NCBI GenBank assembly: GCA_035325685.1
Contig: DAOKZJ010000001.1
Coordinates: 160 to 64,159 of the forward strand
Direction of reading: 5' to 3'
From: Candidatus Moraniibacteriota bacterium
Lineage (GTDB): Bacteria; Patescibacteriota; Minisyncoccia; Moranbacterales; GWC2-37-73
Length of the DNA stretch: 64,000 bases
The position numbers were made by a program, and so were the translations under genes. This document shows positions 1,968-55,117 of the stretch, one piece after another; position 1 is the first letter of the stretch; each line of letters begins with the position of its first letter. The notes beneath the pieces are model-generated. The model did not search any database. It saw only the letters and a list, made by a program, of their open reading frames with translations, and was not told where the DNA came from.

Positions 1968-2031
1968 ATCCTCATAAAATCTTATTCTTGACCGAAGGAA
2001 TTTTAGCACGCCCTGAAACTGTTAGCAATCC

Positions 2032-2058
2032 CTCTTTGCGAGTGCTAAATCTAGTACG
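2032..2058. promoter_or_regulatory. CIRCE-like inverted repeat (HrcA operator) upstream of dnaJ
   Basis: TTAGCAATC-N9-GAGTGCTAA against consensus TTAGCACTC-N9-GAGTGCTAA. It lies 65 nt upstream of the dnaJ start. Confidence 0.7.
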
Positions 2059-3121: not shown

Positions 3122-3566
3122 GCTTCCATCTTACCATCGATCCGCCGATAAAAAAACGGGGCAGCCTTTTGGCTACCCCCGGGGAACCGTGGATGCTCAC
3201 TGAGAGCAGATGGGATCCGGGCAATCCCCGCCGTGGATCGGACATCCCTCCTCCTTCCCCCTTCCTCCGCAAAGAGGGGTGCCCGGAGAAGTTTTGGGAC
3301 CATCCACCTTGCACCTCCCCATTTCGGGAGTCACGATTCCAACTCCCACGTCCACCGTTACTTTTTTTTCCCCACTCATACGGCTCCTCCCGCCCAATCT
3401 TCTGGCGCTTCTTTTTGGCGCGGTCTTTGCCGCGCTTAGCTGTCCTTTTCTTATCTCTTTTTTCAATATTTGTCAACACTCTTGCCTAATTTGAGATTTT
3501 CCTTATACTGCCTTAGGATGAATATCCGGCTGTTTTTTAAAATAACCTAAGTGCCAGGAGGAAAAG

Positions 3567-4091
3567 ATGGACCAAAAATCGACACCCAAAAAAGAAAATT
3601 TTTCGGAGTTGGTGGAACATTTCCGCGCCATGTACGAGCAGCTTCGCGATCTCCAAAAAGTTGAACAGCAAAAACATCTTCCTTCGGGAGAAACCACTTT
3701 GGAAGCGCTGGCGCTGCTTTGGAGGAAAACGTTCTCTCCCTTACTGCCCGTTTGCAATATCTGCTTCGTGCTCGAAGAAATCCAGCTCCGTCTCCGCAAA
3801 ATGCATCGCTTCATTTTGTCCTTGAATATCTGTTTGCACTCCGGCAAGGAAAATATTCCCACCCTTTCCCAAATAGAAGCTTCTCTTATCTCTCTTGGAG
3901 AAATAAGAACTCTTACGCGCGAAATCATATCCCTAAGCGACAAGGAACGCATCTTCGATCACACCTGGGAAGAAGCCGTGCGACTACGCCGCACACTCAC
4001 AAGGCTGGAGGCTTCACTTGCAAAGAAGCGCTCCGAAATGCTCAGCACAACAAGCCGGCATGAACTGAGTCACGATTGTCCGACCCAATGA
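3567..4091 (+). CDS. Hypothetical protein (174 aa)
   Basis: Strong SD (caGGAGGaaaag-ATG). First gene of a plus-strand run of small ORFs. No recognisable domain. Confidence 0.55.
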   Translation: MDQKSTPKKENFSELVEHFRAMYEQLRDLQKVEQQKHLPSGETTLEALALLWRKTFSPLLPVCNICFVLEEIQLRLRKMHRFILSLNICLHSGKENIPTLSQIEASLISLGEIRTLTREIISLSDKERIFDHTWEEAVRLRRTLTRLEASLAKKRSEMLSTTSRHELSHDCPTQ

Positions 4092-4108
4092 GTAAGGAGG
4101 GATGCAAA

Positions 4109-4450
4109 ATGGAGGTCATCATTTTCACTGCGGTTCTCTTTTGGGGAGCAAAAATCTGCGGCAAGCTTTACCTTTACGCCTCAACCAAAGCGACCAGCAC
4201 CGCTTGCCATCTCGAAAGATGCTCTTGGCTGCTGGGTGCTGCCAATTTTGCCTTGAGCGTTTTTGTTTTGTGCGCCTTGGGCACGCTTTTCCTTTTCGAA
4301 ATAGGCAAAGCCGCGTTCGGTTCATATCAAGAAAAGACGTGGCTTTTCAATTCCGCTTGGATTTGCGTTTCCTTGCTTTTCTCCCGCGGAATGCTTCCCC
4401 CAAAAACATCAATGCCCCCGGAGGAAAGCAATGACCTTGTCGGAACGTGA
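4109..4450 (+). CDS. Small hypothetical membrane protein (~113 aa)
   Basis: SD AAGGAGGG lies 7 nt before the internal ATG (MEVIIFTAVLF...). Two or three predicted TM helices. Confidence 0.5.
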   Translation: MEVIIFTAVLFWGAKICGKLYLYASTKATSTACHLERCSWLLGAANFALSVFVLCALGTLFLFEIGKAAFGSYQEKTWLFNSAWICVSLLFSRGMLPPKTSMPPEESNDLVGT

Positions 4451-4769
4451 CATAAAGGCCTTGGGACACCTGTTTAGCATCAAGGATCAGCGCCATGCGG
4501 AACTTTTGCTCCAAAGGCGCCTCCGCCGGGACGGTTTTCTTTTCGCGCGCATTGCCGTTTCTTACCCAGGCTTGCGCAAAAAGGCGATTCGGCGCATTTG
4601 CGGCCTTAAGGATTGCCGCGCGGATTCCCTGCGCTTCGTCTTGGAGCGTTCTTTGGCTGAAAGAAAGGAACAATGCAAGCTTGCCAAACTCTTGCTGCGC
4701 CTTGACTCGCGCAAAGATACCGCAGAGTTTGTGCGGCGCTGCTTGGTCCAAAACAAAGCCGGATCGTAA
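4431..4769 (+). CDS. Hypothetical protein (112 aa)
   Basis: SD GGAGGaaagca-ATG. Overlaps the upstream gene by 20 nt. A terminator follows. Confidence 0.5.
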   Translation: MTLSERDIKALGHLFSIKDQRHAELLLQRRLRRDGFLFARIAVSYPGLRKKAIRRICGLKDCRADSLRFVLERSLAERKEQCKLAKLLLRLDSRKDTAEFVRRCLVQNKAGS

Positions 4770-4794
4770 TTATCGATCCGGCTTTTCTTTTTTA
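4756..4794 (+). terminator. Rho-independent terminator
   Basis: Hairpin gccggatcg/cgatccggc followed by a T-run (ttttcttttttatt). Confidence 0.7.
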
Positions 4795-5204
4795 TTGCTT
4801 TCTTTTTCGCTCAGACGTCTTTTTTGCCCGATTTTTTTGGGCAAGTGCGGCCAAGATAAGCAAAAAAACAATGAGTCTGGTCTTTCCGACCTTGAGTCCT
4901 TCCGAGCTGAAGCAACCCATCCTTTGTACATCCTTCTCTAATAAAAAATCCGAAACCCTGGGTATTTCTACTACTCTGTATCTGACACCCTTCACGATCC
5001 TCTCCTCGCCTCCGGCTCCCTCTTTTTTCTTCAAAGAATCCCTCATGGCCTCCTCCTTTTTGACCAATCGAAACAGTTGTCAATATACTTTTTTGATTTT
5101 CCATGATAAATCAAAAAAACCTCTCCGTCAACTCTCTTGACTGCTTTTGGTTTTGACGCTTCAATTGTCAAAGAGTCCTTTTATAAAAATCCAAGGAGGT
5201 CCCT

Positions 5205-5621
5205 ATGGAATATGAAAATTTATACAACCGCATTCCCCAGCGCCAGGCGGCCGCAGAAAATGAGGCGTCTATCGTAATTGAGCTGCAAAAAATGCTTCTG
5301 GATCTCTGGGATGTTTTTTTCTTTTCCCAGGAAATACTCGTTCTTCCCCAAATAGCCAGCGGAACCAAAAGACACATCGTCGCTATCCAGGAAAAAATCA
5401 TGACTCACATTATGAACTTCGGTTACGCCTTAAGCTCCGCTCCTTTGCCGCAACTGGAAAAGGAAGAAGACTTGCTTTGTACCAAGATAGACTCGGTCAT
5501 CGATGAATTGAGTTTCTTTCTGGATGAATTGGAGGCTGCCTGGATGCTATTGGAACCGGATAGGCCCCTGCGAAGATTGCCCAGCGGCAAAATACAATTT
5601 CACAAAACCAGCGAGTGTTGA
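5205..5621 (+). CDS. Hypothetical protein (138 aa)
   Basis: SD AAGGAGGtcccT-ATG. No recognisable domain. Confidence 0.5.
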   Translation: MEYENLYNRIPQRQAAAENEASIVIELQKMLLDLWDVFFFSQEILVLPQIASGTKRHIVAIQEKIMTHIMNFGYALSSAPLPQLEKEEDLLCTKIDSVIDELSFFLDELEAAWMLLEPDRPLRRLPSGKIQFHKTSEC

Positions 5622-5630
5622 AAAAAAGGG

Positions 5631-5909
5631 ATGGATATAAGAGAAGCTCTCGCTCAAGTCTTAGATATCCTGTGTACAAAAATTGGGATATATTCTCCGC
5701 TAAAAAAAGCCCTCAACCTGGAATTTATCAATCGCTTATCTGTCCTGATAATGCTTTTGGTGGACGGCCGGTTTTCTTTACGCCTGCTTTTGATTTCCGA
5801 CTGCCTGCGCCGCAACAAGCATGAATGTGAACTCAGCCGCAAAGCGATCCGCTTTTTGCTTCCGACATACCGCTTACCGACATACCGTACGAGCTGGCCA
5901 GACGAGTAA
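5631..5909 (+). CDS. Hypothetical protein (92 aa)
   Basis: ORF 10 nt after the previous stop; only a weak SD (aaaaaaaggg-ATG). Called mainly from its co-orientation and spacing. Confidence 0.35.
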   Translation: MDIREALAQVLDILCTKIGIYSPLKKALNLEFINRLSVLIMLLVDGRFSLRLLLISDCLRRNKHECELSRKAIRFLLPTYRLPTYRTSWPDE

Positions 5910-6061
5910 AGTCCAGGCATGTTTTTAACCGCAAAAAGAAAGCTTTCGTACCTCGCGCGCTTCCCAGCGCCTACGCCCTTCGCCGAATGTTTGACCCTCC
6001 TAAATTATGAATTACTGCCCCCCAGCCATCCGCTGCCGGGGCTTTTTCTTTTTCCCCAACG

Positions 6062-6108
6062 CCCCACCCAAAAGCGAAGCTTTTGGGTAATGGCTCAAAT
6101 AAGGCAAA
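6062..6108. repeat. 47-bp direct repeat, copy 1, containing a GCGAAGC mini-hairpin
   Basis: ccccacccaaaagcgaagcttttgggtaatggctcaaataaggcaaa occurs again at 6765..6811. It carries a perfect hairpin cccaaaagc-GAA-gcttttggg; a third, partial hairpin is at 6112-6140. Confidence 0.85.
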
Positions 6109-6151
6109 TTCCTAAAGCGAAGCTTTTGGAGAAGCTTTAGAGCAAAAAATA

Positions 6152-6190
6152 AAGGCCGGATTATAAATTTAATCCGGCCTTTTCTTTTTT
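6152..6190. terminator. Bidirectional rho-independent terminator
   Basis: aaggccggatt-ataaa-ttaatccggcctt with an A-run before and a T-run after. Could terminate the plus-strand small-ORF run and the minus-strand gene 6621..6247. Confidence 0.75.
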
Positions 6191-6246
6191 TGCATGAGCA
6201 CCTGCTTCAATTAATTTCTGGAAATCATTTTGAAAATAAATCCCCG

Positions 6247-6621
6247 CTAGCTCCTCCTCTCCTCAGTCCGATAATTCTCCCAAAAGACATCCATAAAAGA
6301 AATAGCCTTTAGCAATTTTTCCGTCAAGCAAGAGGCATTTGCCATTACCGCCCCATTTATCCTGAAGCGCCTTTTATTCATGGAAACTCCCTGTCCATAC
6401 TCAGATAGAAAATAATCCTCTCCGTCCGGACCCTTGAAAATGAGGTTTATTTCGGAAGGACGGCCCAGATATTTTTGAGCCAGCCAAATGCGCAAAAAAT
6501 GACAATAAGCTTCGCGCAATGAACGCATGGGATTATTTGCATTCAACTTGAAATGGACTTCCAAAGCGAGCTTGCGATCCGCCAAAATAGCACAGCAATA
6601 ACTTCCGTGGCCGATTCCCAT
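6247..6621 (-). CDS. Hypothetical protein (124 aa), possibly a small nuclease-like protein
   Basis: Strong SD (aagaaGGGGGGAtttATG). Only a faint resemblance to small PD-(D/E)xK/YraN-like proteins (EINLIFKGPDGEDYFLSEYG). The gene lies between the two 47-bp direct repeats. Confidence 0.45.
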   Translation of the reverse strand: MGIGHGSYCCAILADRKLALEVHFKLNANNPMRSLREAYCHFLRIWLAQKYLGRPSEINLIFKGPDGEDYFLSEYGQGVSMNKRRFRINGAVMANASCLTEKLLKAISFMDVFWENYRTEERRS

Positions 6622-6764
6622 AAATCCCCCCTTCTTATAAAGTGAAGTGCTCTTATTTTAAAAAACTTCGTCTTAAATCCAAATATTCCTATCCCATCCT
6701 ACACCCGAAAAAAACATATGCAAAGTATCCCTCCTCCCAAAAAAATCCCCATTAATCCCAAAAA

Positions 6765-6811
6765 CCCCACCCAAAAGCGAAGCTTTTGGGTAATGGCTCA
6801 AATAAGGCAAA
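6765..6811. repeat. 47-bp direct repeat, copy 2
   Basis: Identical to 6062..6108. Confidence 0.85.
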
Positions 6812-6894
6812 AAACTCTTGGGGAAAGGGCAAAAAAGAACCTTTGCGCCATACTCCAAGGGGGTTGTTTTTTAAGTCATCCGGAAACATTCACT

Positions 6895-6925
6895 TAAAGA
6901 GCGGGGTTCAATCCCCGCTCTTTTT
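6895..6925. terminator. Hairpin / terminator at the dnaK 3' end
   Basis: agagcgggg-ttcaat-ccccgctct with a T-run on the plus side and an A-run before. It lies directly after the dnaK stop. Confidence 0.5.
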
Positions 6926-6930
6926 TCAAA

Positions 6931-8832
6931 CTATTTTTTATCGCCGTTTTCTACTTCCGCGTCTTTCACCTCACCTTCGTCTTTTTTCTCTTCGCTGCCT
7001 TCAGCGCCGGCTTGTGTGCCTTCGGCGGCTTGCGTGGCGGCATAAAGCTTCTCGCCGATCTTTTGCGCCGCTTGGGAAAGCACTTCGGTCTTGGCCTTGA
7101 TCTGCTCCAGGTCGTCGCCGTTTTTCACCTTGTTGAGCTCCTCGATCGCCTCCTTAACGGGCTTGGCTTCTTCTTCACTCACTTTGTCGCCCGCCTCCTT
7201 AAGCGCTTTTTCCGTGGTGTACACCAACGTGTCGGCCAAGTTGCGCGCTTCCACCAGTTCCTTTTTGCGCTTGTCCTCTTCGGCATGCATCTCGGCATCT
7301 TTTTTCATCTTTTCGATTTCTTCCTTGGAAAGACCGCTGGAGGCTTCAATCTTGATGGATTGCGACTTGCCGGTCGCCTTATCCTTGGCGGTCACGCTCA
7401 ATATCCCGTTTGCGTCGATATCGAAAGTTACTTCGACTTGAGGAACACCGCGAGGAGCGGGAGGAATCCCGTCAAGAATGAACCGTCCCAATGTCTTGTT
7501 CCCGCTCGCCAATTCGCGCTCGCCTTGCAGGACATGGATCTCCACGCTCGGCTGGTTGTCAGCTGCGGTTGAAAATACCTGCGACTTGGCTGTCGGTACG
7601 GTCGTGTTCCTTTCGATAAGCGGAGTGGAAATTCCGCCCATCGTTTCTATTCCGAGTGTCAACGGAGTTACGTCCAACAGTAACACGTCCTTGACGCTTC
7701 CCTCCAAGACTCCGCCCTGGATTGCGGCCCCCAGGGCCACCACTTCGTCCGGATTCACGCTGATATTGGGTTTTTTGCCAAAAAACTTCTCCACTGTCGA
7801 AAGCACTAACGGCATCCTCGTCATTCCACCGACCATCACCACCTCGTTGATATCGGCAGCGCTCAGTTTGGCATCAGCCAAGGCTTTCTTTACCGGCTCC
7901 AAGGTTTTTTCCACCAAATCTCCTACCAATTCTTCCAGTTTGGCTCGCGTGAGCTTCATAACCAGGTGCCTGGGACCCGAAGCATCGCTCGTGATGAACG
8001 GTTGGTTTATTTCCGTTTCTTGCGCGGTCGAAAGTTCGATTTTGGCTTTTTCCGCAGCTTCCTTGATGCGCTGCAGTGCCAGCGGATCCTTGGAAAGATC
8101 AATTCCTTCTGTTTTTTTGAATTCGTCGATGATCCAAGTGATGATCTTTTGGTCAAAGTCATCCCCACCCAAGTGCGTGTCGCCGTTGGTCGACTTTACC
8201 TCCACTGTGTCTCCACCCACTTCCAAGATGGAAATATCGAACGTGCCGCCTCCCAAGTCATATACGGCTATTTTCTCATCGTTTTTCTTGTCGAATCCAT
8301 AAGCCAAAGCAGCCGCCGTCGGCTCATTGATGATGCGGCGCACGTTCAGGCCGGCGATTTCGCCCGCTTCTTTGGTTGCCTTTCTTTGCGAGTCGTCAAA
8401 ATAAGCCGGCACGGTAATGACCGCATCCGTGATCGTCTCGCCCAATTTCTCCTCCGCATCCGCTTTGAGTTTTTGGAGAATCATCGCGGATATCTCCTGC
8501 GGCGTATAATCTTTGTCGCCCATCTGCACCTTGACCGTTTCGCCGGCATGCACAATTTTGTACGGCATGAGCTTTTCGTCACGCTGTACTTCGCTGTCAT
8601 GATAAGCCCGTCCGATCAAGCGCTTGATGGAAAACAAGGTATTGGTCGGATTGGTCACCGCTTGGCGCTTAGCCAAAAGACCCACCAGCCTCTCGTTAGT
8701 TTTAGAAATAGCTACCATTGAAGGTGTGGTACGCGCCCCTTCTTTGTTCTCGATTATCTCGGGTTTTCCTCCCATCACGACGGCCATCGCCGAATTGGTG
8801 GTGCCCAGGTCGATTCCCAAAATCTTGCCCAT
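6931..8832 (-). CDS. dnaK: Chaperone DnaK (Hsp70)
   Basis: [14 protein letters not shown]..., DLGGGTFD, the [11 protein letters not shown] motif, and a 633-aa length with a C-terminal lid domain. Confidence 0.97.
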
Positions 8833-11355: not shown

Positions 11356-11382
11356 TTAGCAGTCGTCAAGTCCGAGTGCTAA
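11356..11382. promoter_or_regulatory. CIRCE-like element upstream of hrcA
   Basis: TTAGCAGTC-N9-GAGTGCTAA. A TTGACG -35-like hexamer lies within the spacer and a TAAGAT -10 follows on the minus strand. Confidence 0.75.
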
Positions 11383-12614: not shown

Positions 12615-13523
12615 ATGAAGACCGTCTCCTTCAAAAACACTACCTGGGTCGATTTTGCCAACCCGAGCGCAGACGACATTCTTTATCTGCAGGAAAATTT
12701 TGACATCCATCCGATCGCTATCGAGGAATTTGTAACGCCCACCTTCCGCCCCAAGGCTACCCAATATGACAACTGCCTTTTTCTTACCGTCCACATCCCG
12801 CTTTACGACACGGTTTCGCGCACCACTTATCCCGGAGAACTGGATATCGTACTCACCCGCGACCACCTGATCACCGGACATACCGATGAAATCTACCAAC
12901 TGGAAGAATTTTTCCAATCCCTGGAAGAAAGCGAAGGCAAAAGGCGCCTTTATATGGAAAACTCTCCAGCGCACCTGCTCTACCATTTACTCAACCTGCT
13001 CTTGGAATCATGCTTTCCGCGCCTCGACCACGTGCACCGCAAACTTACGGATATCGAGGACAAGGTTTTTCATGGCAAAGAAAAAGAAATGGTATACGAG
13101 ATCAGCGTGGTCAAACGCGATATCCTCAATTTCCGTCGCACGCTCAAGCCGCAACGCTCCGTACTGGAATCGCTCGCCCAAAAAGACACGCCATTTATTT
13201 CCGAAGACCTGCGGCCTTATTTTCAAGACCTTATCGGCACCAATATCCGCCTCTGGAATGCCCTGGAAAGCAACAAGGAAACGATCGAATCCATGGAAGA
13301 AACCAACAACTCCCTACTTTCCAACAAACTGGACCATACCATGAAGGTGCTCACCATCTTCTCGGCCATCATGATGCCCATGACCGTCTATTCCAACATC
13401 CTGGCTATGAGCGCGGACATTCCGTTTGGCAAAAACCCCAACGGCTTCTGGATCCATATGGGAATCATGATTTTCATTTCCCTGTTCACAATTTCGGTTT
13501 TTAAGGGCAAGAAGTGGCTGTAA
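12615..13523 (+). CDS. corA: CorA-family Mg2+/Co2+ transporter
   Basis: ~300 aa, with a soluble N-terminal domain and two C-terminal TM helices (MPMTVYSNILAMSAD...GIMIFISLF), as in CorA. The canonical GMN loop appears degenerate. Confidence 0.8.
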   Translation: MKTVSFKNTTWVDFANPSADDILYLQENFDIHPIAIEEFVTPTFRPKATQYDNCLFLTVHIPLYDTVSRTTYPGELDIVLTRDHLITGHTDEIYQLEEFFQSLEESEGKRRLYMENSPAHLLYHLLNLLLESCFPRLDHVHRKLTDIEDKVFHGKEKEMVYEISVVKRDILNFRRTLKPQRSVLESLAQKDTPFISEDLRPYFQDLIGTNIRLWNALESNKETIESMEETNNSLLSNKLDHTMKVLTIFSAIMMPMTVYSNILAMSADIPFGKNPNGFWIHMGIMIFISLFTISVFKGKKWL

Positions 13524-13638: not shown

Positions 13639-15066
13639 ATGAAAATATACAACACCCTGTCCAAGAAAAAAGAAGTCTTTGAACCGCTCAACCCCGGCAA
13701 AGTCGGCATGTACACCTGCGGACCCACCGTTTACGGCGATGTGCATGTCGGCAACATCCGCGCTTACGTGGTAGCCGATACGCTGCGCCGTTATTTGCAA
13801 TACCTGGGATACGAGGTGCGCCACATCAAAAACATCACGGACGTGGGCCATCTGACGGCAGACGACGTGGCCCAGGGAGATAGCGGCGAAGACAAAATTG
13901 AAAAAAAGGCGCGCGCCGAGAAAAAAACTCCCGAAGAAATTGCCCGTTTTTACGAGCAGCGTTTTCGCGAGGTGGAAAAGGAGATGAACATCTTGCCGGC
14001 CAATTATTTCCCGCGCGCGACCGCGCATGTCGGACAGATGATCCGCGCGATCGAAACGCTCCTTTCCAAAGGATACGCCTACGAAAAAAACGGCAACGTC
14101 TTTTTTGACGTGACCAAATTCCCCGCTTACGGCAAATTGAGCGGCAACACCTTGGAAAAATTGAAGGTCGGGGCGCGGCTTGAAGAGCATCCGGACAAGA
14201 AAAATCCCTGGGATTTCGCCCTCTGGCTGAGCGCCCCCAAAGAGCATCTGATGAAATGGGATTCGCCCTGGGGAGTCGGTTATCCCGGCTGGCATATCGA
14301 ATGTACCGCCATGAGCACCGAATATCTGGGTTCGACGATCGACATCCATACCGGGGGCGAAGACAACATCTTTCCGCACCACGAAGCGGAGATCGCCCAG
14401 ACCGAATGCGCCACCGGCGAGCAATTCGTGCGCTACTGGCTGCATGTCCGCCATTTGCTGATGGACGGCGAAAAGATGAGCAAATCCAAGGGAAACCTGT
14501 TCACATTGGAAGATCTCATAAAAAAAGGATATTCGCCCATGGCGGTACGGCTTCTGCTTCTTTCTTCACACCACCGTTCGCAGCTCAATTTCACCTGGGA
14601 CGCGCTGGAGCAAGCCAAAAAAAACTTGCAGCGGATAAACGATTTTGCGCTCAATTTGGAAGCCTTCAAAGGCGAAGTAAAGAAAGAAAATCCAAACCCT
14701 CTGGCTATCGACTCTTTCCGCCAAAGGTTTGAAGCGGCCATGGACGACGACCTCAACACTCCGCTGGCGCTGAGCATCATCTACGAGCTGATAAGCGCCG
14801 CCAACCGCGCAGCCGATGCGGGCACGCTCGGAGCCGATGATGCCGCGCACCTTCTTTCCTTCTGGAAAAAAGCCAATTCGATTTTGGGACTGGCTCTGAG
14901 CGGCCAGGCCGAAATACCCGAAGAGATAAAAAAATTGGCTGCCGAACGGGAACAGGCCAGGGCAAAAAAGGATTTTGCCGCTTCCGACCGGCTGCGCACC
15001 CTGATTGAAAGCCGCGGCTACACGGTAGAAGACAGTCGCGACGGCATGAAAATATTCAAACATTAA
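13639..15066 (+). CDS. cysS: Cysteine--tRNA ligase
   Basis: Class I motifs HVGN(IR) and KMSKSKGN; [16 protein letters not shown] is typical of CysS. Confidence 0.97.
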
Positions 15067-17790: not shown

Positions 17791-17872
17791 TCCCGATCGC
17801 AGTCAATTCCATGCCTTCTCCATTTTGTGTTATTGTTTTGATTTTTGGATTTTGATTTTTGATTTTATTAAA

Positions 17873-18457
17873 ATGCACCCCAAAGCTTTCCAAAAACTGA
17901 TCCGGAATTTTTCCTCCCTGCCTTCCGTGGGACCCAAAATGGCCGAACGGCTGGTCCTTTTTCTGTTCAAGCAAGACAAGGAGGTTCTTGAAGAATTTGC
18001 CGCAAACCTTACCGCCATCAAGGAGCTGACTGTCTGCAAGCGGTGCCACAACATCGCCCAGGACGCAGAATGTTCGATCTGCACGGACAACCGTCGTGAC
18101 AAAAAAACACTCTGCGTCGTAGAAGAGCCCTTGGACATCTTATCCATCGAACGCACCGGCGCTTACCGCGGCCTTTACCATGTGCTCGGCGGCGTCGTTT
18201 CCGGCGCAAAAGTCCAAAACCTCACCATCTCGCATCTTCTGGACCGCGTTGGCAAAGAAAATATCGCCGAAGTGATTTTGGCCACCAATCCGACCACCGA
18301 AGGCGACGCCACCGCCCTTTACCTCAGACAAAAAATGCGCCCCTTGGGCGTAAAAATAACGCGCCTGGGCCGCGGCCTATCCACCGGGGCGGACCTGGAA
18401 TACGCCGACGAAGTAACGCTTTCCGAAGCATTGACAAATCGCAAGGAACTTGCATAA
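17873..18457 (+). CDS. recR: Recombination protein RecR
   Basis: HhH motif, C4 zinc finger (CKRCHN...CSICTD) and Toprim domain (LCVVEEPLD). Confidence 0.93.
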   Translation: MHPKAFQKLIRNFSSLPSVGPKMAERLVLFLFKQDKEVLEEFAANLTAIKELTVCKRCHNIAQDAECSICTDNRRDKKTLCVVEEPLDILSIERTGAYRGLYHVLGGVVSGAKVQNLTISHLLDRVGKENIAEVILATNPTTEGDATALYLRQKMRPLGVKITRLGRGLSTGADLEYADEVTLSEALTNRKELA

Positions 18458-22066: not shown

Positions 22067-23164
22067 TCATAATGCTTCCTCTATGCTTCCGCCGCCGTAT
22101 ATCTCTCCGTCCTCGCCATAAAAAACCGCGCTCTGCCCAATGGTCACCGCGCGCTGCGGCTCTGAAAATCTAACTTCATACACATCATCCCCTTCTGCGC
22201 GCTCCACCAAACATGCCACGTTCGGATGCCGGTAACGGATCTTTACAAGGGCTTTCAGCGGCAACTTGGGTTCAAAGGCAACCCAGTTGGTCATTTTCAC
22301 TTTCATTCCCTTGCGCAAAATGAGCGGATCGCTTTCATTGTTTGTAACCACCAGCGCATTCGCGCCGAAATCGCGGTCAACCACGTAATACGGACCCGTA
22401 CCGCCGATATTTATGCCTTTGCGCTGGCCTATCGTATAAAGCTCCAACCCCTGATGCTCTCCCAGAACTTTGCCGGCCGTGTCTATTATTTTGCCTGGCG
22501 TGAGTTGCAAGTTGCGCTTCAGAAATTCTGTCGGATATTTTTCCGGCGTAAAGCAAAGACCCTGGGAATCATCCTTGTCGAAAACTGGCAGGTTGAATTC
22601 CTGGGCCATTTCCCGCACCCTGGCCTTGTCGTAACCGCCCACCGGAAAAAGGACTTTTTCCAGCTGGCCCTGCGTCAAATTGTACAAAAAGTAAGTTTGG
22701 TCCTTTTCGTCATCGATCGAAGTATAAAGATGTTTTCTGCCGCCCTTTTCGCGCACTGTCGCATAGTGGCCCGTAGCCACATAGTCAGCGTCCATCTCCA
22801 GCATTTTGCGCATAAGCACCTGGAACTTGATGCGCTGATTGCAAACCACGCAAGGATTGGGCGTGCGCCCGTTCTTGGTCCCTTCCAGATATGCATCCAC
22901 CACTTCGCGTTTAAATTCCGCAGCCACATTCGCCGTGTAAAGCGGGATGTCCAGAATATGCGCAACCGTACGCGCGTCTTGTTGCGATTCCAAAGAGCAG
23001 CATTTATTTTCCCTCAATTCGTCTTGACCCGGCTCTTTCCAAAAATGCATGAACACGCCGATAACTTCGTATCCTTGCTTTTTGAGCAAAGCGGCGGCCA
23101 CCGACGAATCCACGCCGGCGCTCATCCCCAAAACCACTCTTTTTTTCCTAATTTCTTTCTTCAT
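22067..23164 (-). CDS. mnmA: tRNA-specific 2-thiouridylase MnmA
   Basis: PP-loop SAGVDSSV, and the catalytic cysteines (NKCCSLE...NPCVVCNQRIKF). Confidence 0.93.
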   Translation of the reverse strand: MKKEIRKKRVVLGMSAGVDSSVAAALLKKQGYEVIGVFMHFWKEPGQDELRENKCCSLESQQDARTVAHILDIPLYTANVAAEFKREVVDAYLEGTKNGRTPNPCVVCNQRIKFQVLMRKMLEMDADYVATGHYATVREKGGRKHLYTSIDDEKDQTYFLYNLTQGQLEKVLFPVGGYDKARVREMAQEFNLPVFDKDDSQGLCFTPEKYPTEFLKRNLQLTPGKIIDTAGKVLGEHQGLELYTIGQRKGINIGGTGPYYVVDRDFGANALVVTNNESDPLILRKGMKVKMTNWVAFEPKLPLKALVKIRYRHPNVACLVERAEGDDVYEVRFSEPQRAVTIGQSAVFYGEDGEIYGGGSIEEAL

Positions 23165-23252
23165 ATGATATCCATGATATCAGCAAAAAAAGGCTTTGTA
23201 AACAAAAAGCTAAGCTTTAAACACGCTTTAAAGCTTAGCTTTGAAAAGAAAT

Positions 23253-25163
23253 TTAGTCCTTGCGCATCGAGCCGATCATGGAACGAATGTCCTCCAAATT
23301 GGATTCCACTTTTTTGCGTGTCGGTTCAAACTTCTTGGGACCCAGTCCGCTGAGCGAAGAAAGCGACATTGGTTTTTCTTCCGGGGCGATGACCTTGCGC
23401 TCTACCTGGCGCACGGACTTAGCCGGCGCGGATTGGATTGGCCGCTGGCGCATTTCAGGACCTTTGGGCGCAAAAGGCTTTCTGCCGATAGGCTTGGATG
23501 CGGCGTTCATTCCTTGCCGAAAGTCGTTCCGCCCGGAAGGCGCGCTTTGCGAAGCCGGTCTGGCAGCCGCCTGAACCGGTACGATTTTGTCCTGAATTAA
23601 GGGCTTGCCCATGGCAGCAAAACGCTCTTCCTTGAGCTTGGCTTTGGCTTGCATTCTTTGGAAATCCTTAAGGCAATCCTTGCAGAAAGTGGGTCTTTTG
23701 CCGTCCGGCTTGAAAGGCACTTTTATCTGGTCGCCGCATGTTTCACACAGCGCATCAAAAAGTTCCTTTTCTTCTTTGGGCGGATCAGCCGGAGCGGGAT
23801 TTGCGGAAAAATCCTCACTCGACGCAACTTGGCTCGCCTGGATCGATACTCCCGCACCGCCGCTTTGTACCGGAGCGGAAACGGGCGGCATCATTCCAGC
23901 CCAACGCGCAATCTTTTCTTCCACTTCCGCGCGAGGCGATCCATAGCGTTCGCGCGACACGGCTATCACCTTCTCCTCATTTTCCTTGGTGTCATCTATA
24001 TAGATCGGCGGCAATGTGGTGGCCGAAAAAGCGTCTCCGGCGATACCGTCGATCATCAGCTTGAGATATATGTTGTATTTGGGCAGATTGACGATATCGT
24101 TCTGCATGAAAACGGGCGCAAATTCCTTTTCCAAAAATTCCGCATCCATCGCGCCCACCCGAAACGAAATGATGGAACCCACGTTGCCAAAGATGGCATT
24201 GCGCACCGTTTCGGCGATCTGCTCGACGTACTGGTTGGCCAAAATAAGGTTAAGCCGGTATTTGCGCGCTTCCGAAAGGATGTTGGCAAAAGATTCGGTC
24301 GAGAAATTTTGAAACTCGTCCACGTACAGGTAAAAATCCTTGCGCGTTTCCTCCGGAATGTCCACGCGACCCATCGCCGCCAGCTGAATCTTAGTGATCA
24401 TCATGGCGCCAAGCAACGCGCTGGCATCCTCCCCGATTCTTCCTTTGGAGAGGTTCATGATCAAAATCTTGCGCTCATCCATGATGGTACGCACATCAAA
24501 AGAAGATTGGGGTTGTCCCACGATATTGCGGATAAGCGAATTGGACAAAAACTGCCCCACTTTATTTTGAATCGGAGAAACCACTTCTTGGAGCACTTTG
24601 TCGCTCCACTTGGGAAACTCATCCACCCAGAACTGGCGGATGACCGGATCGGTAATCCTTTCCACCACCTTGTCGCGGTATTTTTTATCCACCAAGATGC
24701 GGGTCACGCCCAAGAGCGTACTGCCCGGATATTCCAAAAGACCCATAATGGCGTTGCGCAAGATATATTCCAATCGCGGCCCCCATGAATCCGCCCAGAT
24801 CTTTTTAAACACCCCGACCAAACCGGAAGCCACCAAGTGGCGATATTCCGGATCGATCGATTCCATCGCGTTAAATGCAATCGGAAAGCCTTGGTCAGCC
24901 GGATTGAAATAAATGACATCATTGATGCGTTCGGACGGAATGGCTTTGAGCAGCTTTTCGGCGGTGTCGCCGTGCGGATCGATGTAACAAACCCCGTGTC
25001 CGTTGCGGATATCTTGGACGGCCATGTTTTCGAGCAAATTAGTTTTGCCCATGCCGGTCTTTCCAATGATATACATGTGCCTCCTGCGGTCGTCCGTCTT
25101 GATACCAAACACCCTCTCCTGGTTGCGGAAATTTGTTTTGGCAAAAAAAGTGATTTCATCCAT
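23253..25163 (-). CDS. VirD4/TraD/TrwB-like (type IV coupling protein family) P-loop ATPase with a C-terminal zinc ribbon and a basic low-complexity tail
   Basis: Walker A IIGKTGMGKTNLL followed by CYIDPHGD, Walker B LYVDEFQNF, and ARKYRLNLILANQY. A CxxC-x17-CxxC zinc ribbon (CETCGDQ...FCKDCL) follows, then a ~130-aa P/K/R/S-rich tail. No N-terminal TM helix. Confidence 0.75.
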   Translation of the reverse strand: MDEITFFAKTNFRNQERVFGIKTDDRRRHMYIIGKTGMGKTNLLENMAVQDIRNGHGVCYIDPHGDTAEKLLKAIPSERINDVIYFNPADQGFPIAFNAMESIDPEYRHLVASGLVGVFKKIWADSWGPRLEYILRNAIMGLLEYPGSTLLGVTRILVDKKYRDKVVERITDPVIRQFWVDEFPKWSDKVLQEVVSPIQNKVGQFLSNSLIRNIVGQPQSSFDVRTIMDERKILIMNLSKGRIGEDASALLGAMMITKIQLAAMGRVDIPEETRKDFYLYVDEFQNFSTESFANILSEARKYRLNLILANQYVEQIAETVRNAIFGNVGSIISFRVGAMDAEFLEKEFAPVFMQNDIVNLPKYNIYLKLMIDGIAGDAFSATTLPPIYIDDTKENEEKVIAVSRERYGSPRAEVEEKIARWAGMMPPVSAPVQSGGAGVSIQASQVASSEDFSANPAPADPPKEEKELFDALCETCGDQIKVPFKPDGKRPTFCKDCLKDFQRMQAKAKLKEERFAAMGKPLIQDKIVPVQAAARPASQSAPSGRNDFRQGMNAASKPIGRKPFAPKGPEMRQRPIQSAPAKSVRQVERKVIAPEEKPMSLSSLSGLGPKKFEPTRKKVESNLEDIRSMIGSMRKD

Positions 25164-37498: not shown

Positions 37499-37598
37499 CC
37501 GACCCCTTTCCTGGCCGCAACAATTAAAAAACCTTCTCACTTCCCGCAGCACTTTTTGAATTTCTTGTCGCTGCCGCACGGACAAGGATCGTTGCGGC
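37499..37598. repeat. 100-bp direct repeat, copy 1 (duplicate of the secA 3' end plus 3' UTR)
   Basis: Differs at one base from 37662..37761. In one minus-strand frame it still encodes ...[19 protein letters not shown]. Confidence 0.85.
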
Positions 37599-37661
37599 GT
37601 CGTTTCGCTCCTTAAAACCTTGCGGTTTTAATATTTCCACCCCGGGAAAACCCAGGTTTTC

Positions 37662-37761
37662 CCGACCCCTTTCCTGGCCGCAACAATTAAAAAACCTTCT
37701 TACTTCCCGCAGCACTTTTTGAATTTCTTGTCGCTGCCGCACGGACAAGGATCGTTGCGGC
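37662..37761. repeat. 100-bp direct repeat, copy 2 (authentic secA 3' end plus 3' UTR)
   Basis: Spans the last ~20 codons of secA and ~38 nt downstream. The copies are separated by a 63-nt spacer that holds the hairpin cgggaaaacc-ca-ggttttcccg. Confidence 0.85.
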
Positions 37762-40389: not shown

Positions 40390-40550
40390 AACCCCAAGCG
40401 CTCCGCACCTCATATCTGGTGCTTGGCATCTTACATCCTCGAACTTGAAACTTAAAGCTCGCGACCAAACCCGCCAGCTCGCTAAAGCATTGACCGTTTA
40501 ATGTGCAACTTTTTTAACTTTTAACTTTTGCCTTTTACCTTTTCACCCGC

Positions 40551-41795
40551 CTATTCCCACCCGCTCATCAGGATGCCCAAATCCTTGGTATTAACTATGC
40601 CGTCGCTGTTTTTGTCCGAAGCGGCGTTGGCAGTGAGCCAAGCAGCAATAAACTGAAGAAAGTCAAAGATGTCATAAGATGCCCCCTGGGAAGAACCGAA
40701 AGTTATCGGATAGCCGCTTGCATTGGCGGAGCCATTGGCGTCTACCACGTAAAGATAGGCAGAAGAGCCATCGGAAAAAGATCCTTGGTTGACACTTATC
40801 TCCAGTGCCGTATCCGCCCATTGGTTTTGGGGTAGTTGGATTTCACAATGACTACTTGCTGCTTTGGTCGAGCTTTCGCATATCTCCACCCTGGCCAAAG
40901 TGTTATCCACGTATATTTCTCCAAAATCTACCGTTGCCGCATCGGGGCTATAATCAAATTCCGGCATCCAGCCTAGGGCGCCTATGCCGTTGATGCTGGC
41001 AAGATTTCCCTCCGAAGCTCCTCCGCTCATACAATCGACTTTGCCCGAATAACAATCTAAAAATTCCTCGTTATTTACAGAAAGTCTTATTCTGGGATGA
41101 TAAGGTAAAGATCCGTTATCTAAAATCTTTTCCATCCTGTTCCAAGCGCCTCTGTTTATAAATGATTCGTGCCAGGCGCCAAACCTGTACCCTTGGGAAA
41201 AATCATAACCGGTAGTGTGCTCCGGCGACCAAATAATGGAAGCAATTTCCCATTGTCCTGTTGGCGTAAATCTTGTAAATTTATTTTGCGAATTATCCAG
41301 GGTACCATTTGCACTCACCCAATTCCACCAAGTAACATACATGCTCTTATTATTCGCTTCAGGAAAAACTTCTCCTCCCACGGCCGCCCATTCATGTGCC
41401 GCGTCAATATTTGAATTTGGATTGTTGCTGTATTTTGCAGTCCATTTTCCCCTGGGGTTTATGGTTTTATAATAGGGGGATTCTCCGGCATAACCTTCGT
41501 TCCAAGGATAACTTGCCCCGACAGGAATCCTATTTCCGTTTGACAAGCCAGCATACATGCCGTCTACCGGGTCCCACTTGAGAGGAGCTACCGGATTTTT
41601 TATTCCAAATCCATTCCCCGAAATTGTCACGCTCTGTCCATGCCGCAAGGCATTGCTCACGCTTGAAATGCTTGGCGCGGCAAAAGCAGTCTGCGCGGCA
41701 AAAAAAGACCCTACTGATATAGCCAAACATATTTTATTACGTAACTCGTTACGTAATAAGTTACGTAATTTCTTTTTCTTCATTTCTATATGCAT
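40551..41795 (-). CDS. Secreted protein with a C-terminal dockerin-like Ca-binding segment (paralog A)
   Basis: Signal peptide, then AAPSISS...GQSVTISGNGFG (TIG-like), a W/G/N-rich body, and the C-terminus SDKNSDGIVNTKDLGILMSGWE. The last ~95 nt are identical to paralog B. Confidence 0.7.
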   Translation of the reverse strand: MHIEMKKKKLRNLLRNELRNKICLAISVGSFFAAQTAFAAPSISSVSNALRHGQSVTISGNGFGIKNPVAPLKWDPVDGMYAGLSNGNRIPVGASYPWNEGYAGESPYYKTINPRGKWTAKYSNNPNSNIDAAHEWAAVGGEVFPEANNKSMYVTWWNWVSANGTLDNSQNKFTRFTPTGQWEIASIIWSPEHTTGYDFSQGYRFGAWHESFINRGAWNRMEKILDNGSLPYHPRIRLSVNNEEFLDCYSGKVDCMSGGASEGNLASINGIGALGWMPEFDYSPDAATVDFGEIYVDNTLARVEICESSTKAASSHCEIQLPQNQWADTALEISVNQGSFSDGSSAYLYVVDANGSANASGYPITFGSSQGASYDIFDFLQFIAAWLTANAASDKNSDGIVNTKDLGILMSGWE

Positions 41796-41891
41796 GTCGT
41801 ATTGATTATTTCGTATTTCCTTTCTGCAACTCTCTACTTGTATCTTGTACTTTTCACCTTTTAACTTTTTAACTTTTAACTTTTCGCCCGC

Positions 41892-43142
41892 CTATTCCCA
41901 CCCGCTCATCAGGATGCCCAAATCCTTGGTATTAACTATGCCGTCGCTGTTTTTGTCCGAAGCGGCGTTGGCAGTGAGCCAATTCACCACTAGTTGCAAA
42001 AAGTCAGAAACAGAATAAGTCTGCGGCTGCGCTTGGCTGCCAATGGTAATTGGATATCCCTGACTTACGGAATTGTTCTGATCCGTCACAAAAAGATAAG
42101 CTGTCGCACCGTTGCTGAAGCTGCCTTGATTGACCGTGAAAGATACCTGGGAACTGTTCCATGCGCTCGGTATCTGGATTTCGCGATGCGTACAGTCCGC
42201 ATAAACCGGCGCATTTCCTATCTCCACCCGCGCCCATGTCCGATCTATATACAAATCGTCTATGTACGCATCCGCGCCGGTATTGGCCGGCATGGAAATA
42301 GGATCACCCGGATCTTCATCAGTCGCCCAATAATGTCCGATGCGTATTTCCGTGGGCAGGACATTGCGCAAACGGAATACAACGGTATTGGAAAAGGGAG
42401 TTGAAGGACGCGAATTTACATAGCGATACATGACCCCGTCGCCCACGCCGGGAGTCGACGTCTTGTAAATGACTTGCTCATGCTTCCAGGTGCCATACAT
42501 GCGATCCTCGTCATTCCAAAGCTCCACGCCCGGTGGCTGCGTCGGATACGCATCATCCCAAATCGCAAAAAGCCCCCCATTTCCGGGCCTGAATATGCCC
42601 GGATTCATTTGCAAAGTTATGTCATTGGTCCACACCCGCCAGGGTTTGTAATTGCGCCCATTTGTCCCGCTGCTATCCAACGGCGTCAAGCGATACCAAT
42701 AATCCAAATACAGTAACGGATAGCCGTTATCGTAATCATTGACACAAAGCGAAACGTTTTCCGTGGCAGGACGAAAGGAATGCTTGCTGGAAATTGAATG
42801 ACCCGAAGATCCGCGTGAAACTTCGGAAGAATAGCGCGCCAGATCGGATCCCGTTCCGCCACTCCAGCCGGTAACCAACTGGCCGGAAGCTCCTTGTTCA
42901 AAATTATCCCAGCGATAAGGAGCGGCGCTGCTCTTTGTTCCGAAATTGCTTCCCGAAACGGTGATTGTCTGCCCTTGCTGGACAGTGCCTTGCAAAGAAG
43001 AGATGCTTGGCGCAGCATGAGCCACATTCATCCCCCAAAAGATTGCGCTCAGCGCACCCAAAAGCGTTCCGCCATATAACAAGCCGGGTAATTTATTTTT
43101 TCTCGCTCCTGTTGCCATAAAAATAGTTGTAGTAGGGGACAT
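41892..43142 (-). CDS. Secreted protein with a C-terminal dockerin-like segment (paralog B)
   Basis: Same N-terminal AAPSISS...GQTITVSGSNFG module and an identical C-terminus. The start is uncertain (ATG 43142, ATG 43118, or TTG 43208). Confidence 0.65.
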   Translation of the reverse strand: MSPTTTIFMATGARKNKLPGLLYGGTLLGALSAIFWGMNVAHAAPSISSLQGTVQQGQTITVSGSNFGTKSSAAPYRWDNFEQGASGQLVTGWSGGTGSDLARYSSEVSRGSSGHSISSKHSFRPATENVSLCVNDYDNGYPLLYLDYWYRLTPLDSSGTNGRNYKPWRVWTNDITLQMNPGIFRPGNGGLFAIWDDAYPTQPPGVELWNDEDRMYGTWKHEQVIYKTSTPGVGDGVMYRYVNSRPSTPFSNTVVFRLRNVLPTEIRIGHYWATDEDPGDPISMPANTGADAYIDDLYIDRTWARVEIGNAPVYADCTHREIQIPSAWNSSQVSFTVNQGSFSNGATAYLFVTDQNNSVSQGYPITIGSQAQPQTYSVSDFLQLVVNWLTANAASDKNSDGIVNTKDLGILMSGWE

Positions 43143-54649: not shown

Positions 54650-55117
54650 GGGGAAAATGAGTATGTTGCCTGCCCAAGCAAACATGTAAGCCGGATTCTG
54701 TCACTTCCGCAAAACAGAAGCGGACAACTATTTATCTAGCTCTGGCGTTTCCGCCAGAATCAAGCGGCACTCCGCCGACGCAAAAGCGTCGCCGGCACGG
54801 CCTTGCACCACGCAGGGTTTGCCATCTTCCGCCGTCGCCGGCGGAGAACTGCCGTAGCCCACATCCTTTGCTAATCAGCTGATGAAGCAAAGTCGTGTAC
54901 CTCGGCAAACTTTTCACCTTTTGCCAGCGCTGCGCACTGGCTAGTATAGTCTCTGTGGCACTTTCCCTTCCACGGCGTCACCGCTGTGGCGGTGGGCGTT
55001 ACCCACTGCGCCTAATCCCGACAAGTCGGAATTGGTGTCCGGACTTTCCTCTCTCCGCCTAAGCGGACAGCAGCTGTCCCGCCTGCTACGACAGGCAACA
55101 CACTCATCTTTTCCCGG
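54650..55117 (-). ncRNA. rnpB: RNase P RNA (bacterial-type)
   Basis: The minus strand has GGCGGAGAGAGGAAAGTCCGGACACC (P4 5' strand) and ACAGAATCCGGCTTAC (P4 3' strand / CR-V). An extended P1 pairs 5' GAGUGUGUUGCCUG with 3' CAGGCAACAUACUC. Length is about 450 nt; the ends are approximate. Confidence 0.8.

Follow-up and report, generated by a model that had tools for sequence, protein, structure and literature searches.

A directly repeated hairpin sequence around a single orphan gene beside dnaK in a Moranbacteria genome: a candidate product of local gene insertion

Two kinds of described system lie closest to the locus reported here. Cis-mobilizable elements (CIMEs) are segments that lie between direct att-like repeats and hold no recombination gene of their own (PMC5704250), and minimal mobile elements (MMEs), known from Neisseria, are variable gene cassettes found between flanking genes that are conserved (Saunders and Snyder, 2002; PMC3787668). 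Here we describe an arrangement that recalls both, in a stretch of 64,000 nucleotides of contig DAOKZJ010000001.1 (the window), which comes from the metagenome-assembled genome of an uncultured Candidatus Moranbacteria member of the candidate phyla radiation (CPR). A 47-nucleotide sequence, CCCCACCCAAAAGCGAAGCTTTTGGGTAATGGCTCAAATAAGGCAAA, is present as two exact direct copies, termed A and C, on either side of one small gene, the open reading frame (ORF) ORF124, in the interval between dnaK and dnaJ. To our knowledge, the streamlined genomes of CPR bacteria hold very few recognisable mobile elements. The account that we favour, and hold tentatively, is a one-off, recent and local event in which recombination inserted or re-inserted the ORF124 unit at a hairpin site and thereby duplicated 47-56 bp. 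The repeat looks like the outcome of a single event in one population and not like a new family of mobile DNA, and nothing points to a mobility system that is dedicated or active at present.

The two copies of the 47-mer (coordinates of all features are collected in Table 1) are the only ones in the window, also when three mismatches are tolerated, and 100 shuffles gave an expectation of 0.00 chance matches; in this the preliminary description of the locus was exact. Likeness between copies A and C reaches 56 nt (53/56, 95%), adding nine nucleotides on the left, and falls abruptly to background beyond these edges (upstream-flank alignment, p = 0.48; downstream-flank alignment, p = 0.05). Each full copy contains a hairpin with a perfect 10-bp stem, ACCCAAAAGC-GAA-GCTTTTGGGT, which dominates the predicted fold on both strands. 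The heptamer d(GCGAAGC) is documented as an unusually stable DNA mini-hairpin (PMC13037366), and it had been named earlier as the core of each hairpin. The perfect hairpin in each copy and its stability stand, whereas the heptamer is not distinctive here because it and its complement occur 24 times in the window against about 8 expected. The third, partial copy noticed earlier is also present: copy B comprises the hairpin only and begins 3 nt after copy A, and nested AAGCTT palindromes run on from it to position 6140. An inverted half-copy of 15 nt abuts copy C; its pairing with TTTTGGGTAATGG (6781-6794) could replace the main hairpin of that copy. Furthermore, the sequences flanking the whole arrangement on its outer sides are complementary at 14/17 positions, a value reached by none of 300 shuffles. 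The reconstructed empty site, obtained by joining these flanks through one 47-mer, therefore folds as a single compound hairpin (dG -43.7 kcal/mol, z = -5.1).

This structure is genuine DNA. Both copies are present in separate ENA assemblies, ERZ794915 and ERZ794933, which are 99.9-100% identical to the window, and a third contig on record also carries ORF124. In addition, two Logan contigs (k = 31) from further runs encode an identical DnaK and both stop at window position 6782. This break lies 30 nt into copy C, so that the contigs end with one unique base and 30 nt of the repeat, precisely the point at which a graph of k = 31 has to branch if a repeat with both its junctions exists. An artefact in which two strains or organisms were joined at a common 47-mer might be suspected from the low coverage of the metagenome assemblies (about 6-7x) and from an 11-bp indel and a contig end some 500 bp away, at 5542-5553. 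It is nevertheless very unlikely, given the separate assemblies and the Logan contigs that break at the predicted branch point of the repeat. SPAdes k-mers longer than 47 moreover need reads that span both junctions, and another ENA assembly of the genome used k = 141, which exceeds the repeat length (its dnaK region was not retrieved). The indel itself, GGATGCTATTG at 5542-5552 in the window relative to ERZ794915, shifts the frame of the C-terminus of the orphan ORF o138 (138 aa as against 112 aa) and adjoins the end of the ERZ794933 contig at 5553; it is suggestive of heterogeneity among strains, or of relaxed constraint within the block of orphan genes.

ORF124 is a real gene with atypical codon usage. 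A frame-aware Markov model trained on the long genes of the window scores it at +7 bits in its own frame and at -20 to -70 bits in the other five, and NCBI annotates it as the hypothetical protein PKA31_00050. As the preliminary description had it, the roughly 700 bp held between the repeats contain this one Shine-Dalgarno-supported gene and a bidirectional terminator, which ends both ORF124 and the convergent plus-strand block. With its own Shine-Dalgarno sequence, a plausible promoter and this strong terminator, the segment of about 656 bp between the copies (repeat spacing, 703 bp) forms a self-contained single-gene unit. At 40.4% GC it is the 656-nt stretch of lowest GC content in the window; in GC (0.445) and third-position GC (GC3, 0.49) the gene stays below its neighbours, dnaK having 0.525 and 0.63. 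The protein matches no Pfam, PHROG or NCBIfam family and lacks an H-hydrophobic-H (HUH) motif, and its predicted fold shows no recognisable DNA-binding motif. A faint resemblance to small PD-(D/E)xK nucleases had been proposed; neither sequence nor fold bears this out, as no D...(D/E)xK motif on an alpha-beta-beta-beta-alpha-beta core is found.

Table 1. Features of the repeat locus and of the surrounding heat-shock genes (window coordinates).
Feature	Position	Strand	Remarks
CIRCE (HrcA operator)	2022..2048	+	upstream of dnaJ, one mismatch
Hypervariable spacer, dnaK to o353/dnaJ	3122..6930	.	six plus-strand orphan ORFs (3567-5909) and the ORF124 unit
Outer left flank, TTTTTCTTTTTCCCCAA	6043..6059	+	complementary to the outer right flank
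Repeat copy A	6053..6108	+	exact 47-mer 6062-6108, hairpin 6066-6088; sequence match, fold prediction
Copy B, partial	6111..6129	+	hairpin only, 18/19 nt
Bidirectional intrinsic terminator	6151..6182	both	13-bp stem, T-runs on both strands
ORF124	6247..6621	-	124 aa, basic (pI 9.2), function unknown; coding in own frame only
Shine-Dalgarno, AAGGGGGG	6626..6633	-	4 nt upstream of the ORF124 ATG
Inverted half-copy, CCATTAATCCCAAAA	6749..6763	+	15 nt, abuts copy C
Repeat copy C	6756..6811	+	exact 47-mer 6765-6811, hairpin 6769-6791; sequence match, fold prediction
Outer right flank, TTGGGGAAAGGGCAAAA	6818..6834	+	14/17 complementary to the outer left flank
Palindromic terminator, AAAGAGCGGGG-TTCAA-TCCCCGCTCTTT	6896..6923	.	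just downstream of the dnaK stop
dnaK	6931..8832	-	conserved boundary of the variable region
CIRCE	11356-11382		upstream of hrcA, one mismatch

Insertion is favoured by the 47/47 identity with its abrupt edges, by the self-contained, low-GC nature of the unit and by the complementary outer flanks, and also by three features considered below, the unrelated spacer content of 80 related loci, the relocation of the ORF124 family and the fact that ORF124 is no nearer in sequence to the homolog of the nearest genome than to other members; the presence of the structure in several assemblies adds to this. According to this model, the unit would have entered a hairpin-bearing intergenic site with the dnaK terminator region on one side and the end of the convergent orphan block on the other. 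The 47-56 bp of common sequence would serve as the site of a reciprocal crossover of the Campbell type, with an intermediate that was circular or looped, and would end up as a direct repeat on each side of the unit, in an attL/attR-like arrangement. There is no dedicated recombinase nearby. RecA could have mediated the crossover, or an enzyme acting in trans could have catalysed it. Which way the event went (insertion as opposed to copying of the repeat), that its intermediate was circular and whatever mobility the unit may have today are parts of the model that we infer. Because two perfect repeats are in place, the 703-bp unit should be deletable or excisable by recombination.

The surroundings of the unit are themselves variable. 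Judging from sequence comparison, orphan genes make the dnaK-dnaJ spacer of Moranbacteria a region that is hypervariable throughout the lineage, since the flanking genes recur but spacer content and length differ across 80 related loci, recovered through GrpE (99 loci were fetched in all). The grpE-(hsp20)-dnaK ... o353-dnaJ layout is found again and again among these loci, with spacers of about 0.4 to 6 kb. By tblastn, none of the seven spacer ORFs of the window was detected in the 80 loci, and a later profile search recovered a single ORF124 homolog (in locus L004); the spacer proteins match nothing in Pfam, PHROGs, PADLOC or NCBIfam. Read in the direction of dnaK, the order in the window is CIRCE (controlling inverted repeat of chaperone expression), hrcA, grpE, hsp20, dnaK, dnaK terminator and copy C, followed by ORF124 with its terminator, copies B and A, the six convergent orphan ORFs, o353 (a membrane protein of 353 aa), a second CIRCE and dnaJ. 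The heat-shock cluster is thus split by some 3.8 kb of orphan genes, and its halves are separately regulated, as each has a near-consensus CIRCE of its own. Control of ORF124 by HrcA was considered and rejected, CIRCE being present only upstream of hrcA and dnaJ.

The ORF124 family is very rare. No close relative is present among 5.8 billion clustered proteins, exhaustive HMMER searches with profile iterations yielded eight members, and profile scans of JGI metagenomes and IMG/VR added none. The members share the motifs NNPxRSLRKA..FL..W and R.P.INLFF, no His or Tyr is invariant in their alignment, and ORF124 is 27-33% identical to the others, being no closer to the homolog from the nearest genome (L004). 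Six distinct family loci have a genomic context, and in three of them, this window included and all in Moranbacteria, the gene lies downstream of dnaK on the same strand. In L086 the order is dnaK, DUF3467, homolog, and in L004/L096 (Moranbacteria GW2011_GWC2_37_8), where DnaK is 90% identical, the homolog lies 2.6 kb after dnaK. A perfect palindrome of 34 nt, with AGCGAAGCTTCGCT in it, comes after the L004 homolog. Homology between the 3' flank of ORF124 and those of its homologs, including a AGCGAAGCTT core in common with the L004 terminator, was discarded as generic terminator-like likeness.

Family copies can also be found next to different genes. Those at L084 3268, L086 943 and L099 523 have 72-86% nucleotide identity, unlike their upstream neighbours, which are a PMT_2 glycosyltransferase gene (L084), dnaK-DUF3467 (L086) and an 86-aa ORF (L099); synteny is lost 20-60 nt upstream of the start codon. 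Gene-sized units of the family relocate, since such similar copies sit beside different neighbours. L086 and L099 derive from one sample, and with this the family may be multicopy or relocating. It appears from these contexts to be tied to a hotspot downstream of dnaK and at the same time to relocate or to be multicopy.

A number of findings weigh against insertion. Neither the 47-mer nor any comparable flanking repeat is present at any of the ORF124-homolog loci, and with homologs downstream of dnaK in L004 and L086 the gene could be an old resident of this position. Apart from the copies described above, neither the 47-mer nor the hairpin (at up to three mismatches) occurs in about 74 kb of the genome, and the called genes of the window encode no integrase, transposase or other recombinase domain, be it of the tyrosine or the serine type. 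No empty site was seen: among contigs with an identical DnaK, those that do not carry ORF124 all break inside copy C, each assembly extending beyond dnaK has both junctions, and the relatives, at GrpE identities of 67% or less, are too distant for a true empty-site comparison. The complementarity of the outer flanks may simply result from two weak convergent terminators, the tails of which are rich in T and in A. The GC of the non-coding part of the unit (35%) counts as normal because intergenic DNA here has a mean GC of 0.43 (SD 0.08) with several segments at 26-35%, and compositional foreignness of the unit was downgraded as an argument. The 3' end of SecA is duplicated over about 100 nt, 163 nt downstream, with no cassette; this succession of repeat, unique segment and repeat indicates that generic local duplication happens in this genome. 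Finally, duplicated intergenic modules are common in the dnaK region of other genomes and do not imply cassettes. Of the proposal that the repeats are att-like boundaries of a small cassette, the identical direct repeats, the sharp edges, the self-contained unit and the variable region have held, and further copies, an empty site and an integrase in the window have not been forthcoming.

The main rival account is that nothing was inserted. On that account ORF124 is an old resident, a small set of local stem-loops (A, B, C and the half-copy at 6749-6763) pre-existed as transcript-boundary or RNA-stabilising hairpins, and a short patch of 47-56 nt was then transferred between two of the sites, either by gene conversion or by template-switching during replication, with the homology of the 19-nt hairpin as its seed. 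Besides the residence of homologs after dnaK in two other species and the SecA duplication, this would accommodate copy B, which consists of the hairpin only and has diverged (18/19), as if two pre-existing hairpins had been homogenised, and the duplicated intergenic modules of L004 (31 nt, 94%) and L034 (three modules, each present three times). On the strand of dnaK, copy C also bears a weak likeness to a terminator; GGGGTTTTTGGG comes after it on the minus strand, and a terminator scan flagged the copy there (tail GGTTTTTGGG). However, a T-run is missing from both strands of copy A and each full copy is placed just after a stronger terminator, so that a terminator role would be redundant; a tract of 47 nt between unrelated flanks is short for RecA-type conversion; and the complementary outer flanks and the low GC of the gene would be left unexplained. 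We consider this account a serious possibility, somewhat less likely than insertion.

The duplications cited above deserve a closer description. The SecA repeat occupies 37499-37761; the minus-strand secA gene ends at 37700, the duplicated part comprises its C-terminal zinc-finger tail and 3' flank with one mismatch, and the copies are parted by 63 nt of unrelated sequence in which two small, perfect hairpins lie. A 96-nt exact repeat at 40546-40641 and 41887-41982, 1341 bp apart, was considered as a product of the same process and rejected, as it is just the common C-terminal coding end of tandem paralogs. These are secreted-protein genes (414 and 438 aa) with a dockerin-like end, ...WLTANAASDKNSDGIVNTKDLGILMSGWE; the repeat is ordinary gene duplication or conversion and lies in the other low-GC bin of the window. 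In L004, a bidirectional terminator hairpin of 31 nt, AAAAAGCCTCGCG...CGCGAGGCTTT, is present at 13064-13094 and 13961-13991, right after the dnaK terminator; its copies are 94% identical, 897 bp apart, and enclose two small convergent ORFs. In L034 (Patescibacteria single-amplified genome AM-311-N19), the stretch downstream of dnaK holds three copies of a module that measures about 150 nt and has a sharp left edge, TTGTCATCTCGACCGAAATGGAGCGACGGAGG... (14033-14180, 14716-14863 and 17839-17897; 88-97% identity), and two of these copies, spaced 683 bp apart, bracket a 106-aa ORF. The same locus holds a sigma-70-like promoter module and a terminator module, three copies of each, and paralogous genes of 161 and 135 aa; no Rfam family matches here.

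A different origin for the repeat would be a low-copy dispersed intergenic family, similar to repetitive extragenic palindromic (REP) sequences, of which this locus is a local cluster and whose other copies lie outside the window. The unit of about 23 nt is palindromic, intergenic and situated after gene ends or between convergent genes, with a clustering like that of bacterial interspersed mosaic elements (BIMEs), and the part of the genome that was searched amounts to about 7% of some 1 Mb. Set against this, no further copy was found in about 74 kb at three mismatches, and identity of 100% over 47 nt is rare among the copies of such families. Exact 19- to 23-mers were looked for in GTDB species genomes, JGI metagenomes and IMG/VR, with zero exact 23-mers in all three; a lone 19-mer match, in a viral contig, was dismissed since it lies inside a coding region with unrelated flanks and equals chance expectation. 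Neither the 23-nt tail nor the 19-nt hairpin has further copies in the window, the repeat was not found in any of the 99 fetched loci, and the whole unit has no blastn match in phages or plasmids. We saw neither a REP-associated tyrosine transposase (RAYT) nor a Y1 transposase, and ORF124 lacks the HUH motif. A dispersed family is accordingly quite improbable. The early suggestion of a REP-like element or of a miniature inverted-repeat transposable element (MITE) thus finds no support, there being also no terminal inverted repeat (TIR) or target-site duplication (TSD) and only a single locus.

Selection on a cis-acting element could also maintain like sequences on both sides of a gene. The repeat might be a 10-3-10 operator palindrome for a dimeric regulator, possibly ORF124 itself, or the 5' part of two small RNAs (sRNAs); in the sRNA version, plus-strand RNAs would end at the terminators 6151-6182 and 6896-6923. 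Three hairpin copies surround one gene and occur nowhere else, on the plus strand further hairpins and a T-rich terminator follow each full copy within 40-110 nt, both stretches fold well (z = -6.6 and -5.0), and ORF124 is small and basic. Yet no Rfam family matches at a useful score, neither copy has a convincing promoter upstream of it, the ORF124 homologs all lack the element in their surroundings, and the fold predicted for ORF124 would offer no recognisable means of binding DNA. Selection, moreover, seldom yields 47/47 identity with such razor-sharp edges. An operator or sRNA role is therefore improbable.

It is formally conceivable that the repeat is coding sequence, belonging to paralogous plus-strand proteins encoded at 5919..6140 (73 aa) and 6718..6897 (59 aa). 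Both ORFs contain PTQKRSFWVMAQIRQ in the same frame and have their stop at most 10 nt before a terminator. Their coding scores, however, are -12 and -13 bits without a frame advantage, values short of the 5th percentile for genuine coding pieces equally long, and for this reason they are probably not genes; neither has a Shine-Dalgarno sequence, and a perfect hairpin in a coding region is unusual. We regard this possibility as highly improbable. Overall, a coding repeat and an assembly artefact are unlikely, and a cis-regulatory or sRNA element and a dispersed family are less likely accounts of the locus.

With regard to other features of the window, the palindromic terminator downstream of dnaK has an 11-bp stem and the better T-run on the plus strand, opposite dnaK, and it contains GGGGTTCAATCCCC, which resembles a tRNA T-arm although ARAGORN calls no tRNA there. 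An att site derived from a tRNA was ruled out, as ARAGORN finds no tRNA or tmRNA anywhere in the window. At Rfam gathering thresholds RNase P RNA (bacterial class A, RF00010, 177 bits; 54671-55089, minus strand) is the sole family in the window, and a permissive scan added sub-threshold matches on a terminator hairpin. A 636-aa ATPase resembling coupling proteins of the TrwB/VirD4 type is encoded on the minus strand within 22067-25163, adjoining a DUF8128 protein (353 aa) and a sigma-70 region-4/HARE-HTH protein. The ATPase is the only conjugation-like gene of a window that is otherwise housekeeping.

If insertion is the true history, the locus offers a clean snapshot of how CPR genomes gain single orphan genes at a hotspot between heat-shock genes. 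Two by-products of the analysis are firmer, namely the hypervariable dnaK-dnaJ spacer of Moranbacteria, which splits the operon into halves with one CIRCE each, and a family of eight proteins among billions of sequences that turns up repeatedly at the dnaK spot. Neither overturns current understanding. A hint of something more general lies in the recurrence of repeat-bracketed small ORFs after dnaK, at 683 bp in L034, 897 bp in L004 and 703 bp here. This could point to an undescribed, integrase-less system of single-gene cassettes in Moranbacteria or other CPR bacteria, in which units of about 0.7 kb would move through hairpin sites of about 50 bp beside dnaK. By analogy with attC sites and the ends of IS200/IS605 elements, to which the sequence is unrelated, a recombinase might then act on folded single-stranded DNA. 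We rate the existence of such a system as a slim prospect.

How does the locus compare with systems that have been described? It differs from dif sites and from the integrative mobile elements exploiting Xer (IMEXs) that use them. The spacer of the palindrome is 3 nt, as against the 6-8 bp centre of the 28-bp dif site, and over the whole window the cumulative GC skew runs monotonically, without a switch around 6 kb (dif sites mark the replication terminus). Likewise, the features of a MITE are lacking, as there is no TIR past the hairpin symmetry and no TSD, a gene lies inside and the locus is single. With REP sequences and BIMEs the repeat shares short GC-containing palindromes that cluster after gene ends or between convergent genes; unlike them it is not dispersed, having three copies within 750 bp, none in the other 73 kb or so, and no RAYT in sight.

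Integron cassettes resemble the unit in being single-gene segments of about 0.7 kb whose edge site folds as a hairpin in single-stranded DNA. However, attC sites carry R''/R' cores (RYYYAAC/GTTRRRY) and form a long, imperfect, bulged hairpin, whereas the repeat has a perfect 10-bp stem; on both strands within about 80 nt of the copies no such cores were found. IntI is likewise missing, the gene brings a terminator and probably also a promoter of its own, and one unit only is present. Elements of the IS200/IS605 group and their non-autonomous derivatives are similar in size (about 700 bp) and in having one small ORF, like hairpins near both ends in direct orientation and neither TIR nor TSD. 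ORF124, in contrast, is not a Y1 HUH transposase (no Pfam match, HUH motif or conserved Tyr), identity extends 20 nt past the hairpin, which that mechanism does not require, and the element is single-copy.

The closest parallels are MMEs and CIMEs, each for a different aspect of the locus. Like an MME region, the interval between grpE-(hsp20)-dnaK and o353-dnaJ has conserved flanks and a different content of whole genes in each relative. CPR bacteria, like Neisseria, are thought to depend on DNA uptake. MMEs are exchanged by homologous recombination in their conserved flanks, a process that neither needs nor leaves 47-bp direct repeats. The repeats are instead what the unit has in common with CIMEs: identical direct cores (47/47) between flanks at background similarity, without a recombination gene inside, so that excision is conceivable either by a recombinase acting in trans or by homologous recombination between the repeats. 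CIMEs are decayed integrative and conjugative elements (ICEs) or integrative and mobilizable elements (IMEs), of kilobase size, integrated where a tRNA or protein gene has its 3' end, and their cognate integrase family is known in the species. The unit described here, by comparison, measures 0.7 kb, holds one gene and has an intergenic hairpin as its target, and no integrase, second att copy, empty site or attP-bearing donor is known for it. Its topology is nonetheless att-like, and the nearest described kind is most likely an integrase-less, att-flanked element of the CIME type, here lying inside an MME-type variable region.

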